Program-made: the position numbers and the translations under genes
DNA from: a virus
Taxonomy: Duplodnaviria; Heunggongvirae; Uroviricota; Caudoviricetes
IMG/VR virus record: IMGVR_UViG_2778261389_000005
Span: 1-35,777 of that record
Reading direction: 5' to 3' (one strand)
DNA: 35,777 nucleotides
In this document: positions 2,838-9,265 of the stretch, one piece after another
Position numbering within the stretch: the first letter of the stretch is position 1
Layout: every line of letters starts with the position of its first letter
Notes under the pieces: model-generated
What the model was told of the DNA's origin: nothing
Database searches by the model: none
The model's input: only the letters and a program-made list of their open reading frames with translations

Positions 2838-5501
2838 TTATGCCTGAGTACGCAGCGCTTCAAGGCGGCGCAGGTCGAAGTCGTTCAGTTCGTCGGTGTA
2901 GTCTTCGGTGATCGGCGCAGGCCAGCAGTTGGTGTCATAAGCCTTAGCCAGGGCGCGCATGGTTTTCTGATATTCCTCTCGGCCAAGCGCCAGCAGTTCC
3001 TCCGAAGCCTCAATGACCGCAACCCAGTGGTAACCCTCGTCTTTGTTAACGAAGATCCAGAAGAACTGATCAAAGTCAGCGACGCTGCAGTACATGCCCG
3101 CGCTGAGGTGGTAATCGCGGTCGATGATTTCCCGGTGCAGCTTGGCGCGCAGGCCTTCCTGCTTAACGCGGCCCATGCTGATCGTTTTCAGGTCAACGCC
3201 GATACGAACGCCGTTTATTTCAACCTCAAGGTCCGGGCGTACACGGACTTCAAGGCCAGTTTCGTCGTCCATACCGAAGTAACTGGTTTCGACTGAACGG
3301 GAAGGGTGGCGCAGTAGTTTTCCGGCCGATTCATGGTTAAGCAGGGCCTGCTGAATTGCCGTGGCCAGCGCCAACTGCTCACTGGACAGGATGGTTTTCC
3401 CGGCAACGCTATCTCGCCATTCCTGCTCGAACTCATCAGCGAAAATGGCATCCGGATTCACCGCGCGGATCGCCGCCTGCAGTTCCTCTTTCTTGCCTGT
3501 GAGCTTCAGTTGCTCGGCCTTTGGCTTATCCGCATTAAATTCGCGGATGAACGCCTTCATGGAGTCGGTAGTGGTAAATGCTCCCTCCGGAACGCCCGGG
3601 AACACCGCGAACTCTTCGTGAAGCTTTTCCGGTTCCAGTGCCATCGTGTGAGACAGGCTACCGAACGTCAGCGCCTCGCTGCTCTCGCGACGGATTGTCT
3701 TGGTCACGTGGCGACCGTGATAGAACATCAGGCTAACGCGCGCATCTTTCAACTGGGTGCTGCTGATCCCGTTCGCTGCGTGGTAAATGTTGTTCGGCAG
3801 GCCTTCATAGCGGCCCGGTTCGAAATAGGCAGGGTATTCCGGCGTGCTGGCGATTTCCTCCGGTGCTTCGGTGGTCATTTCCGGCTGTGAGTCGTTCGCC
3901 AGCTCCGGCGCCACGGCAGCCAGAACCTCAGCCGGGGTCAGGGAAGCTGTTTGCGGATCAGCTGCATCAGAGCTTTCGCCTGGTGGAACCGTGTTACCAG
4001 TTTCTCCTTCCGCCGGGTCAGTCTCTTCCATCTGCACATCGCTGGTGGTCTCCTCTGTAACCGGTGAACGGTCATCTGTTTGTGGTTGTTTTTCGCTCAT
4101 CAGGCCATCAATGGAGAACATGCCGCCGCCGAGGTTAGCGACCTGAGGCTGGCTATCAGTGGAGGTTGCTTCAATGTTTGCTGGGTGAAGCCTTTCATCA
4201 GCAGCGCGCTGGCGCATCAGATCCACAACAGAAAGCGCAGGTTCAGGTCGTTTTTGTTCACCGGCGTTCAACTCGCCATGAAACTCTTCCAACACTTCGT
4301 CAACCTTCTGCCATGCCGCATCTACCATTTCCTGGGTAACTACTTCCTGCTTATGCTCGCTATTGCCATAAATAGGCAGCAACTCAGTCGCAGCATTAAA
4401 TTCAGCCGTCATCGTCTGGTTTACGAACTCCAGATGAGCAACCGGCGTTAGGTGGATATTCTCAGGCGCGATGCGCACCAGGTTGAAGATGGCCGCGCGG
4501 TTAACAGCCAGAACGCCGGGCTGGTTGCGCAGGATTTTGCTCCATGATTTCCATGGTTCTTCTTTGTTCGCGACAATCTCCTTGGCGCGGCGGTGGATGC
4601 TGCCCGGGATTTCCAGATGGTTGAAGTCCATAGGCAGAAGGGCACATGCAATCTCTAAATCGAGAGTGTCAAGGGTATGGTATGCATCAGGTCCACGGTC
4701 AGTGACATAACCGCCGTTGGCATTGGTTCCGGAATCAGTACGCTGAACACTACTGATGTGATTACCGGCAGCCCATTCACGCGCCAGGATGCCACGGTCA
4801 ATGTAATCAGTCGCCGCCCACATTCTGGTGAAACGGAGTACCAGCGCGAGTTCGTGACGCTTGTCCTGGCTGAACACTTTGCGAATGGCATCGGTGTAGC
4901 GCCACAGGTCTTTGGTGTCGTAACCCTTCACTTCCGGGCAGTTCTCAGCAGCTAACAGCAAGTTCTGGACGTAACTGTTATCAGTGTCCATCTCCAGCGC
5001 GCCGATAGCTTCGTACTCTTCGCGGGTTACGTGGTGGCGCAGTTCGTCGGCGGTGAACTGGGAAAGCAGTTGCTTACGAAACGGCATCTGCACTACCGGG
5101 TAGAGGGTTGAGTCGTCGTCGTGTTCGTCCAGCGTGATGCCAGCGGTTTCTGGCAGCGTTGACTCAGTAGTTATGTGACTATCAACGGTCTGAGCCGTTT
5201 TCTCGTCAGAGTTTTCAGCTGTGACTTTTGGCAGCCAGGTGCGGTCATCGTTCTGCAGTTCGTAGCGTTCGCACCAGGTGTAATCCACTGCGCCTTCTTC
5301 CGGCAGGTCGTCATATACCGGGAAATCGGTGCGGATTGGTTTGGCATAATCTTTACCGCGGCCAGTTTCTTCAATTCCGGCTTCTTCCAGTGCCACATCG
5401 AGTTGGAGATTGGCGCGCGCTACACTTTTCGCAGTGAACCAAATCACTGCATCTTTCTTGCCAGACTTCTGACTGGCTTTTATCAGATGGAAAAATTCCA
5501 T
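2838..5501 (-). CDS. RecE-like exodeoxyribonuclease VIII
   Basis: 887 aa; long acidic low-complexity N-terminal region and a C-terminal domain with PD-(D/E)XK-like motifs (RPDLEV, GVDLKT); paired with the annealing protein. Confidence 0.65.
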   Translation of the reverse strand: MEFFHLIKASQKSGKKDAVIWFTAKSVARANLQLDVALEEAGIEETGRGKDYAKPIRTDFPVYDDLPEEGAVDYTWCERYELQNDDRTWLPKVTAENSDEKTAQTVDSHITTESTLPETAGITLDEHDDDSTLYPVVQMPFRKQLLSQFTADELRHHVTREEYEAIGALEMDTDNSYVQNLLLAAENCPEVKGYDTKDLWRYTDAIRKVFSQDKRHELALVLRFTRMWAATDYIDRGILAREWAAGNHISSVQRTDSGTNANGGYVTDRGPDAYHTLDTLDLEIACALLPMDFNHLEIPGSIHRRAKEIVANKEEPWKSWSKILRNQPGVLAVNRAAIFNLVRIAPENIHLTPVAHLEFVNQTMTAEFNAATELLPIYGNSEHKQEVVTQEMVDAAWQKVDEVLEEFHGELNAGEQKRPEPALSVVDLMRQRAADERLHPANIEATSTDSQPQVANLGGGMFSIDGLMSEKQPQTDDRSPVTEETTSDVQMEETDPAEGETGNTVPPGESSDAADPQTASLTPAEVLAAVAPELANDSQPEMTTEAPEEIASTPEYPAYFEPGRYEGLPNNIYHAANGISSTQLKDARVSLMFYHGRHVTKTIRRESSEALTFGSLSHTMALEPEKLHEEFAVFPGVPEGAFTTTDSMKAFIREFNADKPKAEQLKLTGKKEELQAAIRAVNPDAIFADEFEQEWRDSVAGKTILSSEQLALATAIQQALLNHESAGKLLRHPSRSVETSYFGMDDETGLEVRVRPDLEVEINGVRIGVDLKTISMGRVKQEGLRAKLHREIIDRDYHLSAGMYCSVADFDQFFWIFVNKDEGYHWVAVIEASEELLALGREEYQKTMRALAKAYDTNCWPAPITEDYTDELNDFDLRRLEALRTQA

Positions 5502-6803: not shown

Positions 6804-6998
6804 ATGGAAAAGTTCTACGTGGGTTACAACGATGTATGTCAGGCGGTAGGTAGAGCGACGCTGAATCTGATATCACATGGAGACGCGCCCACTACTGAGG
6901 CGATCATTTCAATGCTGGAGTCGCTGGGGGATATTGAGCAGAACGATTTTTGGCGACAGGTGTTCAGGTTTGCTGCTGAGGAAGTGCGAAAAGGGTAG
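6804..6998 (+). CDS. Hypothetical small protein, opposite strand to surrounding early genes
   Basis: 64-aa ORF; GAGGGTGGG RBS before ATG; followed by hairpin at 7011-7028. Confidence 0.45.
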   Translation: MEKFYVGYNDVCQAVGRATLNLISHGDAPTTEAIISMLESLGDIEQNDFWRQVFRFAAEEVRKG

Positions 6999-7002
6999 GC
7001 AA

Positions 7003-7028
7003 AAGAAACCCCGGCGCGGTGGCCGGGT
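7003..7028. terminator. Bidirectional rho-independent terminator
   Basis: CCCGGC-GCGGTG-GCCGGG hairpin flanked by A-run upstream and T-rich tract downstream; lies between convergent ORFs. Confidence 0.5.
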
Positions 7029-7034
7029 TGGAGA

Positions 7035-7460
7035 TTATTTTCTAGATGATGTTGGGGACCAAGGTAACGTTATAGTATCTAACACTGTGTTTTTGAACAT
7101 ATTTTCAAAAACTGTTTTTGTACATACATATACATAATTTTCAAAAAACCAAGCATTTTCATTATAAAAATCCTCAGTTACTTCTTCATCGAGGTCACAC
7201 TCAAATGTTAGTGTCAAGGTAGCCTCTGCCTTGAACAATACATCCTCACCATCATCAAAATCTTTTTTATCGCGAGGGAAACCAGTTATCGATGGCTTAA
7301 CTTCAATAAAGAGCCAATTTCCATCTTCATCTTTTTGAGGAACAACGTGATGCTCAGAAAATTTTAAGCTATATTTTCCGCCTTCAGAATTATCACTGTC
7401 GTCGATAAAAAGGGAAGAACCCTCGAGATCAAATCCCTTAAAGCGAATTTTATCAAGCAT
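7035..7460 (-). CDS. Hypothetical acidic protein, third gene of hicAB operon
   Basis: 141 aa from ATG at 7458-7460, overlapping hicB stop by 1 nt (TGATG); ORF-track version starts at TTG 7496; followed by terminator; AT-rich. Confidence 0.45.
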   Translation of the reverse strand: MLDKIRFKGFDLEGSSLFIDDSDNSEGGKYSLKFSEHHVVPQKDEDGNWLFIEVKPSITGFPRDKKDFDDGEDVLFKAEATLTLTFECDLDEEVTEDFYNENAWFFENYVYVCTKTVFENMFKNTVLDTITLPWSPTSSRK

Positions 7461-7933
7461 CAATGTGGCACTCCGTTGTCTACTGAAACTTCCCAATAGG
7501 TCTCTTCTGTACGTCTACGGGATGAGAAGAAAGTAACTTCTCTAACATCCCTCGGTTTTTCAAAGTGGTAGTGAACCTCTTTTTTCCCATTAACTGACTC
7601 ACTGACAGCCTGTTTTACATAATCGTTTAAAGTCATATTCTTAGCTTTAGCAGCTAAATATGCTTTTTTATGCAGGGATTCACCTATCCGGATGTTAAAC
7701 GAACCACTCATTGTCTTATCTGGAGATTTTCCTATCTCTTCACAAGTGGAGAGGTAATCGTCCACGGCCTCCTCAAAGGCTGCACGGAGTTCTGCAACCG
7801 TTGCACCCTCATAAGTGACGAGATCATTTATACATTCGAGTTTTCCATGCATCACCCCATCTTCAAATGAAATGCTGGAGCTACCATAGTAACCTTTGTA
7901 TTTCATCAAGTTATTCATGATCATCAATCTCAT
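7460..7933 (-). CDS. hicB: HicB-family antitoxin
   Basis: Motif MKYKGYYGS...DG..HGKLECINDLVTYEG...EL..AFEEAVDDYL..CEE.G..P.K..SG.FN.R typical of HicB; likely true start at internal Met (7918 or 7906); about 40-aa C-terminal extension. Confidence 0.8.
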   Translation of the reverse strand: MRLMIMNNLMKYKGYYGSSSISFEDGVMHGKLECINDLVTYEGATVAELRAAFEEAVDDYLSTCEEIGKSPDKTMSGSFNIRIGESLHKKAYLAAKAKNMTLNDYVKQAVSESVNGKKEVHYHFEKPRDVREVTFFSSRRRTEETYWEVSVDNGVPH

Positions 7934-8165
7934 CTAACAGCTGTTTAACTTCTTCCAAGACGTACCTTTTGAGGGTGTTTTCAGGATGAGGCTCATGAAA
8001 AATGACCAATCTATCAACACGTTGGTTGTAAAATTTACGGCCAGAACCTCGTTTAGCATTCAAAAGCTTGAAGCCATACTGGTTCATGAGAGTAACGAAC
8101 TCATCCCAAGTAAAATTTTTGGGTAAGCCGTCTAACTTTGACTTTAGCTTTTCCTTTCTTCCCAC
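7911..8165 (-). CDS. hicA: HicA-family toxin (YcfA-like fold), non-canonical
   Basis: 84 aa, GTG start; aligns to HicA pattern (GF.L...RGS..KF....V..HEPHP) but with GSGR in place of the usual GSHH; overlaps hicB. Confidence 0.7.
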   Translation of the reverse strand: MGRKEKLKSKLDGLPKNFTWDEFVTLMNQYGFKLLNAKRGSGRKFYNQRVDRLVIFHEPHPENTLKRYVLEEVKQLLDEIDDHE

Positions 8166-8192
8166 GAAGGATACATCCTCTGTTAAAGGTAG

Positions 8193-8213
8193 TGCAACTG
8201 AAATCTAGTTGCA
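8193..8213. promoter_or_regulatory. Palindrome TGCAACT-N7-AGTTGCA upstream of hicA, candidate operator
   Basis: Perfect 7-bp inverted repeat 28 nt upstream of the hicA start. Confidence 0.35.
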
Positions 8214-8325
8214 AGCTATGCTATCTATAGACAAAATGTTTCATTGTTATATCAGAAGATACCCGATCTGTTTCACCTTCAACTACTATAATTTGTTATA
8301 AGCTATCAACCGGTGGAACTGCGAA

Positions 8326-8424
8326 TTAGCCGCTGGGTGTTGCGTATCCATCGATGATAAACCATGCCATAAACCCCATAGCTACGATGAACACCAAGAT
8401 CGGAAACACTATACCAATTCTCAT
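8326..8424 (-). CDS. Small hydrophobic peptide (32 aa), possible membrane peptide
   Basis: Hand-translated MRIGIVFPILVFIVAMGFMAWFIIDGYATPSG; AGGGA RBS-like sequence upstream; single predicted transmembrane helix. Confidence 0.3.
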   Translation of the reverse strand: MRIGIVFPILVFIVAMGFMAWFIIDGYATPSG

Positions 8425-8469: not shown

Positions 8470-8862
8470 TTACTCGGCATCGCCCTTAATCCGCCGCCCC
8501 ATATATTTGGCGTACAGATCGTCGAGTTCCTTCAGGCGCAGTGATACCGCCTTAAGAACTCCACCCTGATCCTCTTCGGGGAGTTGACGGAAAAGGCGTA
8601 AAAGCTCTTGCTCATTACTTTTTAATCCATCATTGGGCCCTATATCCTGCCCCAAAACCCAGGCTAAATTCACACCAAGCGCATCAGCTAGCTTAAGTGC
8701 GGAGTTTTTCCCAATAGTTCCCCTTACAAACCAGTTGTTAACCGACTGGGATGTTACGCCACAAATTCTGGCCAGATCTGCTTTTGAGAGATGTTTACTA
8801 TTCGTGATCTCATTGAGTCGTCTGACCTGTGGGTTATCTGATTCGTGTGTATTTTTTCTCAT
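8470..8862 (-). CDS. DicA-like HTH (XRE) repressor, paralog 2
   Basis: N-terminal HTH (LSKADLARICGVTSQSVNNW) and C-terminal LRLFRQLPEEDQ...LRLKELDDLYAKYM; about half identical to the upstream gene; alternative GTG start at 8877. Confidence 0.7.
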   Translation of the reverse strand: MRKNTHESDNPQVRRLNEITNSKHLSKADLARICGVTSQSVNNWFVRGTIGKNSALKLADALGVNLAWVLGQDIGPNDGLKSNEQELLRLFRQLPEEDQGGVLKAVSLRLKELDDLYAKYMGRRIKGDAE

Positions 8863-8881
8863 GTACAAGAGTATCACTTAG

Positions 8882-9265
8882 CTAATCAGCATCGCCCCTG
8901 ATTCTGCGATTCATGTACTTGGCATATAGTTCATCGAGTTCCTTCAGACGCAGGGAGAAGATCCTTATCATATTCTGCTGTTCTTCTTCCGGTAACTGTC
9001 TGTAGAGCTCCAGAATACGTTGTTCATCAGGCTTAAGACCATCCTTCTCTCCAACATCCTCACCAAGTAGCCAGGGGACGGACACCCCTGCAGCGTCAGC
9101 AACCGCTAATGCAGAACTTTTGCTGATTCTTCCTGTTTTGAACCAACTGGAAACAGCTTGCTTACTGACGCCAGCAACCCTGGCCATCTCTGTTTTAGAG
9201 AAACCTTTCCTGTTCAGTTCTGTAAGCCTGGAAATCAGCTCATTTGTCATTGTTTTTTCGCTCAT
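8882..9265 (-). CDS. DicA-like HTH (XRE) repressor, paralog 1, probable CI analogue
   Basis: 127 aa; HTH plus LPEEEQ C-terminal module resembling DicA; divergent from cro-like gene across operator region. Confidence 0.75.
   Translation of the reverse strand: MSEKTMTNELISRLTELNRKGFSKTEMARVAGVSKQAVSSWFKTGRISKSSALAVADAAGVSVPWLLGEDVGEKDGLKPDEQRILELYRQLPEEEQQNMIRIFSLRLKELDELYAKYMNRRIRGDAD

Follow-up and report, generated by a model that had tools for sequence, protein, structure and literature searches.

[quoted passage not shown] The published chaperone-addiction (ChAD) tails of their antitoxins are variable C-terminal extensions of about 45 aa that contain aromatic and basic SecB-binding motifs, and in the HicAB-type TAC of Methylomonas methanica, which was validated in E. 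coli, the ChAD comprises residues 119-159 of HicB (PMC5105189). A more recent study described HigBAC of E. coli NT1F31, a TAC of a lambdoid prophage found in the variable locus downstream of cI, the place occupied by rexAB in lambda; the system is anti-phage and is set off by the lambda tail protein gpV, a ligand of its chaperone HigC that competes with the ChAD tail through aromatic residues (bioRxiv 10.1101/2024.02.24.581848). Among HicA toxins, the histidine of the G-S-H motif is needed for toxicity or RNase activity in the proteins from B. pseudomallei, Y. pestis, S. pneumoniae and E. coli (PMC11594946). Neither Gerdes's 2024 survey of HicA contexts nor a 2024 review of HicAB systems (PMC11594946) mentions chaperones, and the searchable literature contained no paper describing the cassette analysed here, nor any experiment on its toxicity, chaperone dependence or role in phage defence.

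We analysed a window of 35,777 nucleotides (positions 1 to 35,777 of the IMG/VR virus record IMGVR_UViG_2778261389_000005), to which all coordinates refer. Our analysis suggests that the minus-strand block at 8165-7035 is very probably a self-contained, autoregulated HicA-HicB-HicC TAC cassette, carried as a moron by a lambdoid Rac-like prophage and working by a mechanism that we propose below. It reads as a TAC module because the third gene encodes a predicted SecB-like chaperone and HicB ends in an extension that is probably a ChAD tail. The initial annotation had regarded a three-gene hic module as a non-standard arrangement, a view that gives way to the established TACs with HicAB-type examples (PMC5105189) and to a 2025 GenBank record for phage mEp234 (PV340539.1) that already labels the three genes HicA toxin, HicB antitoxin and "HicC chaperone". 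The kind of module is thus already known, and the cassette is an uncharacterised addition to it, with a chaperone clade unseen by sequence profiles and a HicA without the canonical histidine.

The block contains three co-directional genes in the order toxin, antitoxin, chaperone, encoding a HicA-like protein of 84 aa, a HicB of 148-157 aa and an acidic protein of 141 aa. The junctions overlap, and on our reading of the sequence one promoter/operator upstream and one terminator serve all three genes, in agreement with the single, translationally coupled operon proposed initially. At the second junction, the TGA of hicB (7462-7460) and the ATG of the third ORF (7460-7458) have one base in common, as can be read directly in the string TGATG noted before; the same 1-nt stop/start overlap is seen in four of the related loci (L003, L004, L010 and L026). 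The block is AT-rich, as previously described, with 35-42% GC compared to 46-55% in the flanks. Plus-strand ORFs within it were considered as genes and rejected for want of any support. The operon is closed by an intrinsic terminator at 7010..7027 (minus strand), with six GC pairs, a 6-nt loop and the T-run tail GTTTCTTTTG; its hairpin starts 7 nt past the stop of the third gene, which bears out the claim that this gene ends at a terminator, and the same terminator is annotated in EF120460.1. A 64-aa ORF on the plus strand (6804-6998; hypothetical in RefSeq) is convergent with the third gene and stops 12 nt short of the shared hairpin.

The cassette lies between HTH repressor genes (8470-9265) on one side and recE/recT on the other, the position between phage repressors and recombination genes that had been assigned to it. 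The two repressor-like genes, at 8470-8877 and 8882-9265 (both minus strand), are tandem paralogs with 55% identity over 121 residues, and a 32-aa ORF between them and hicA (8326-8424, minus strand) is annotated in RefSeq as a YoaK-family small membrane protein. On the recombination side, a minus-strand ORF of 887 aa (2838-5501) encodes a RecE-family exonuclease, and in the matching genome RecT lies further to the left; together, these mark the element as a Rac-like lambdoid prophage. A prophage of E. coli WEM25 carries an identical hic cassette; this matching prophage is integrated near kch/cls and has only one such HTH repressor-like gene. The cassette is also 99.9% identical to that of phages mEp234, HK106 and mEp506, in which it is placed between cI and N, that is, in the rex position. 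Location downstream of a cI-type repressor is observed in mEp234 and in four further loci of our comparison (L007, L008, L022 and L023). The locus equivalent to rexAB is shared with HigBAC of E. coli NT1F31, while the toxin-antitoxin pair differs, being HigB/HigA there and HicA/HicB here. Among other settings, the three-gene type adjoins hok/gef, DUF968 and rusA in an E. coli locus (L024, 1374-4477), and in Vibrio it is found in an integrase-AlpA-VapE island resembling a phage satellite (L026, 216-4489).

Upstream of hicA, a candidate promoter was derived from conservation across loci (8186..8214, minus strand), with a -35 element TTGCAA at 8214..8209, a 17-nt spacer and a -10 element TACCTT at 8191..8186. 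A strict consensus promoter scan called no minus-strand promoter, this candidate site included; the layout of -35 element, 17 nt and TAnnnT is repeated in most of the divergent loci compared. An inverted-repeat search found the palindrome TGCAACT-N7-AGTTGCA at 8193..8213, presumably the site of the RHH protein HicB. This operator overlaps the candidate promoter, the -35-like TTGCAA lying within one arm and the TAnnnT hexamer following the other. Of the related loci with DNA upstream of hicA, all 18 contain a single copy of the core GCAACT-N7-AGTTGC, at a constant distance from the gene; five further loci, two-gene relatives among them, have it too, although the surrounding DNA is otherwise unalignable between loci. 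We infer a putative promoter that HicB would repress through the palindrome. A promoter of its own, repressed by HicB, would mean that expression of the cassette in the lysogen does not depend on phage promoters. A Shine-Dalgarno sequence, AGAGGA (8176..8181, minus strand), is located 10 nt before the GTG of hicA, and close relatives keep aGAGGAtgtatcc.

The third gene, hicC (7035..7460, minus strand), encodes a predicted SecB-like chaperone of the SecB^TA type. Its product is acidic, as first described, with a pI of 4.36 and 30 D+E residues versus 15 K+R. The ORF had been proposed as a translationally coupled gene, and that it is a real gene is borne out by 60 clusters of the family in an exhaustive profile search (proteins of 130-155 aa) and by a dN/dS of 0.08-0.10 against relatives; given a ratio of about 0.1, we rejected an untranslated or chance ORF. 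The initial annotation considered the protein to be of unknown function, which is also how it is described in PHROG 19522, and RefSeq and older records list the gene as hypothetical. An AlphaFold model predicted from a 10-sequence alignment (pLDDT 79, pTM 0.73) shows a β-sheet followed by a long helix, and the top 18 Foldseek matches to this model are all SecB or SecB-like (TM 0.54-0.74), the best being the TAC chaperone of M. tuberculosis bound to a ChAD peptide. By predicted structure, then, the protein has a SecB fold closest to the M. tuberculosis TAC chaperone. Sequence comparison offers no such link. Searches with the single sequence and with profiles of 10 and 48 sequences returned nothing usable from Pfam, NCBIfam, PADLOC or the PDB sequences; the Pfam SecB profile (PF02556) does not recognise the protein and matches none of 48 members of the family; PADLOC has no model that matches the cassette. 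A comparison with E. coli SecB by hhalign was not significant (E 0.3), with the register that the structure would predict. The chaperone assignment consequently rests on the predicted structure. In this the cassette departs from the M. methanica system (strain MC09; HicA Metme_2813, HicB Metme_2812 and SecB^TA), where a HicAB pair is likewise followed by a SecB-type chaperone gene (PMC5105189): that chaperone was recognised as a SecB homologue and shares 53% identity with the chaperone of Vibrio MqsRAC, whereas HicC is missed by Pfam SecB. The M. tuberculosis TAC (HigB1-HigA1-SecB^TA, Rv1955-1957, PDB 5MTW), despite its structural likeness, shows a sequence identity of only 13-14%, belongs to another toxin-antitoxin family and has a chromosomal, stress-linked context in place of the prophage moron seen here.

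HicB, encoded at 7460..7933 (minus strand), is as recognisable as the initial annotation stated. Pfam HicB (PF05534) scores 66.9 bits against a cutoff of 21, the protein falls in PHROG 9151, it has 590 homologues, and its N-terminal HicB domain is followed by an RHH domain with weak Arc-like and RelB/DinJ RHH matches; the palindrome overlapping the promoter upstream of the operon, its putative operator, fits the family as well. The longest ORF is 157 aa (start at 7933), and shorter readings begin with an ATG at 7918 (152 aa) or at 7906 (148 aa, the GenBank annotation). Judging from relatives, which begin with M-x(2-4)-L-[KS]-Y-K, the start is likely to be the ATG at 7918 or 7906. The Pfam match spans residues 60-109 of the 157-aa reading and about 43-48 residues follow the RHH domain, close to the 40 or so extra residues first reported. 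The last 43 codons, NGKKEVHYHFEKPRDVREVTFFSSRRRTEETYWEVSVDNGVPH (7463..7591, minus strand), form the putative ChAD tail, which has aromatic and basic patches. The tail varies among relatives, keeping E-[IVF]-H-x-H-[FL], a patch of aromatic plus basic residues, a later Trp or Tyr and a C-terminal His. This composition agrees with the published description of ChAD tails, including the aromatic and basic motifs of the M. tuberculosis ChAD (PMC5105189), and a similar architecture is found in M. methanica, whose HicB of about 159 aa has a ChAD tail of about 40 aa (PMC5105189). On sequence grounds, the extension is a probable ChAD tail. In a comparison of this locus with eight others (L003, L004, L007, L010, L011, L022, L024 and L026), every chaperone-linked HicB has an invariant terminal His (codon 7463-7465 here) and E-[IVF]-H-x-H-[FL] just after the RHH domain; two short HicBs have neither. 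The terminal histidine could be a degron or an anchor for the chaperone. It is absent from the C-terminus of M. methanica HicB (…ALEKQYA), a sequence deduced from a published primer.

The co-occurrence of tail and chaperone in the relatives points in the same direction. A gene of the third-gene family follows every long HicB that we looked up (146-180 aa; loci from E. coli, Enterobacter, Pantoea and Vibrio as well as metagenomic ones), while the relatives with short HicBs (124 and 132 aa; n=2) have no tail and no third gene, so that the C-terminal extension is absent from two-gene homologues. These two-gene hicAB relatives (L028, 1716-2399, and L030, 1736-2375, on metagenomic and MAG contigs) keep a HicA with GSRR and H-x-P-H-P and the GCAACT-N7-AGTTGC operator. 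Conversely, in the loci examined the third-gene family was found only adjoining HicAB. The HicA-HicB-HicC order is kept down to HicC identities of 21-25%, and the triad is present in ten IMG/VR viral contigs; a genome scan with an alignment of close third proteins returned a single Pantoea locus.

The hicA-like toxin gene (7911..8165, minus strand; GTG start) encodes 84 aa, with GSGR at 40-43 and H-E-P-H-P at 57-61. It belongs to the HicA family (Pfam PF07927) by a HicA_toxin score of 32.1 bits, above the curated cutoff of 27, and by a dsRBD-like alpha-beta-beta-beta-alpha fold. Phmmer and profile searches of PDB sequences with this protein found no HicA, and in an hhalign comparison with E. 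coli HicA the alignment was confined to the first helix and strand. A consensus-like probe was therefore used to draw sequences of solved HicA toxins from the PDB, and a MAFFT alignment was built from these and five divergent subfamily members. Residues 40-43 align with the GSH(H) of the solved toxins, in keeping with the substitution of GSGR for GSHH noted at the outset, and Gly42 is placed opposite His24 of B. pseudomallei HicA and His28 of Y. pestis HicA3; the H24A change is visible in the sequence of PDB entry 4c26. The catalytic histidine of the GSH motif (His24 in B. pseudomallei, His28 in Y. pestis, His23 in E. coli and His36 in S. pneumoniae) is hence missing from this HicA. The column holds Gly here and Arg in more distant subfamily members, the next residue being Arg or Val, and the resulting motif GS[GR][RV] is invariant across relatives, as is H-x-P-H-P. 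In the latter, a two-residue H-x insertion before the conserved P-H-P creates a subfamily-specific invariant His57. Compared to the canonical two-gene HicAB systems (E. coli, Y. pestis HicA3B3, B. pseudomallei and S. pneumoniae), the HicA fold is common to both, and so are the N-terminal and DNA-binding domains of HicB and operator-based autoregulation, putative here. However, canonical HicA proteins have about 58-66 aa and the catalytic GSH histidine, whereas the protein here has 84 aa, an extra N-terminal helix, GSGR and the H-x inserted before PHP; the canonical systems also lack the HicB tail and the third gene.

Does this HicA remain a toxin? Absence of a histidine that is required in four studied HicA toxins means that RNase activity is not assured, and the initial annotation had suggested that the protein may be inactive. 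We consider inactivity unlikely, as many lineages, two-gene forms included, have retained this HicA type together with a HicB antitoxin and the conserved operator. In a model of the protein (pLDDT 70), strands 42-47 and 52-57 form a hairpin, and if they pair in register, residue 57 would lie opposite residue 42 on the neighbouring strand. On our reading, HicA is probably still an RNase, with a rearranged active site. Because the same type of HicA also occurs in two-gene operons, its unusual active site is older than the chaperone and not tied to it.

Combining these observations with the published systems, we propose the following mechanism by analogy. HicB would repress the operon through the palindrome and mask HicA, and its ChAD tail would cause it to fold poorly or turn over unless held by HicC. 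If HicC were drawn off by another client, for which a structural protein of an infecting phage is the most plausible candidate given the case of HigC and lambda gpV, HicB would fail and HicA would be freed. The freed toxin may then cut or block RNA and arrest translation, so that the infection would be aborted and the lysogen population protected. Between E. coli and Pantoea, identity is 85% for HicA, 64% for HicB and 57% for HicC, making HicA the most conserved of the three; such a gradient is as expected if the chaperone and the tail are a fast-evolving sensor.

A less probable reading, though the strongest of the alternatives, is that the cassette serves chiefly to maintain the prophage in its lineage rather than to sense phages, as an addiction or stabilisation module acting by post-segregational killing or by stress-responsive growth arrest, with the chaperone tuning antitoxin stability only. 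TACs entered the literature as stress-responsive TA systems (PMC3581621, PMC5105189), autoregulation via a conserved operator is classical TA behaviour, and the searchable literature documents no defence phenotype for this cassette. Against this are its presence in the rexAB-equivalent defence slot, the site of a HigBAC TAC with demonstrated defence activity, its recurrence at other hot spots of mobile elements (beside integrases and in the AlpA-VapE island), and the faster evolution of chaperone and tail relative to the toxin; moreover, the addiction and anti-phage roles are compatible with each other. Much further from the evidence, in our estimate, is a degenerate module or regulatory remnant in which HicA is catalytically dead, HicB is a transcription factor only and the third protein has an unrelated role. 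The missing histidine, essential in BpsHicA, YpHicA3, StpHicA and EcHicA, would speak for it, but GS[GR][RV] and H-x-P-H-P are invariant across relatives and, of the three proteins, HicA varies least. This HicA type is, in addition, always paired with HicB and the operator, in two- and three-gene forms and on many hundreds of contigs, a constancy that would be hard to maintain without toxicity.

It is equally improbable to our minds that the third protein is SecB-shaped without being the chaperone of HicB, binding HicA directly instead, as an adaptor or a second antitoxin, or serving as a decoy for the host SecB/SecA pathway. Its sequence shows no similarity to SecB, and SecB-fold proteins of unknown function do exist (2o2a, 2hng). 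The distribution of the gene is nevertheless at odds with such roles: it tracks the HicB tail and not the HicA type, which occurs without the third gene when HicB is short, and the best structural match is a TAC chaperone bound to its own ChAD peptide. The TAC cassette is our preferred reading. A bolder extension of it, which we offer as a speculation that may well prove wrong, is that the locus represents a widespread mobile HicABC clade combining three novelties: a SecB-fold sensor diverged beyond sequence recognition; a HicA whose catalytic histidine has moved from the GSH strand to the inserted His of H-x-P-H-P on the neighbouring strand; and an abortive infection system of the rex locus, sensing a structural protein of a superinfecting phage by competition with the HicB tail, in which the invariant terminal His serves as an anchor or degron.

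If the assignment holds, PHROG 19522, a "hypothetical protein" family, becomes a predicted SecB-like TAC chaperone, adjoining HicAB in mEp234, HK106, mEp506 and many enterobacterial and Vibrio prophages and islands, a TAC type that current profile databases (Pfam SecB, PADLOC) miss. A HicA subfamily without the supposedly essential histidine provides a clean test of how HicA toxins catalyse or block RNA. Finally, the cassette becomes a candidate for a prophage-borne defence system; the lambdoid phages that have it in their rex slot are well studied, and in them hunting for its trigger by means of escape mutants would be straightforward.
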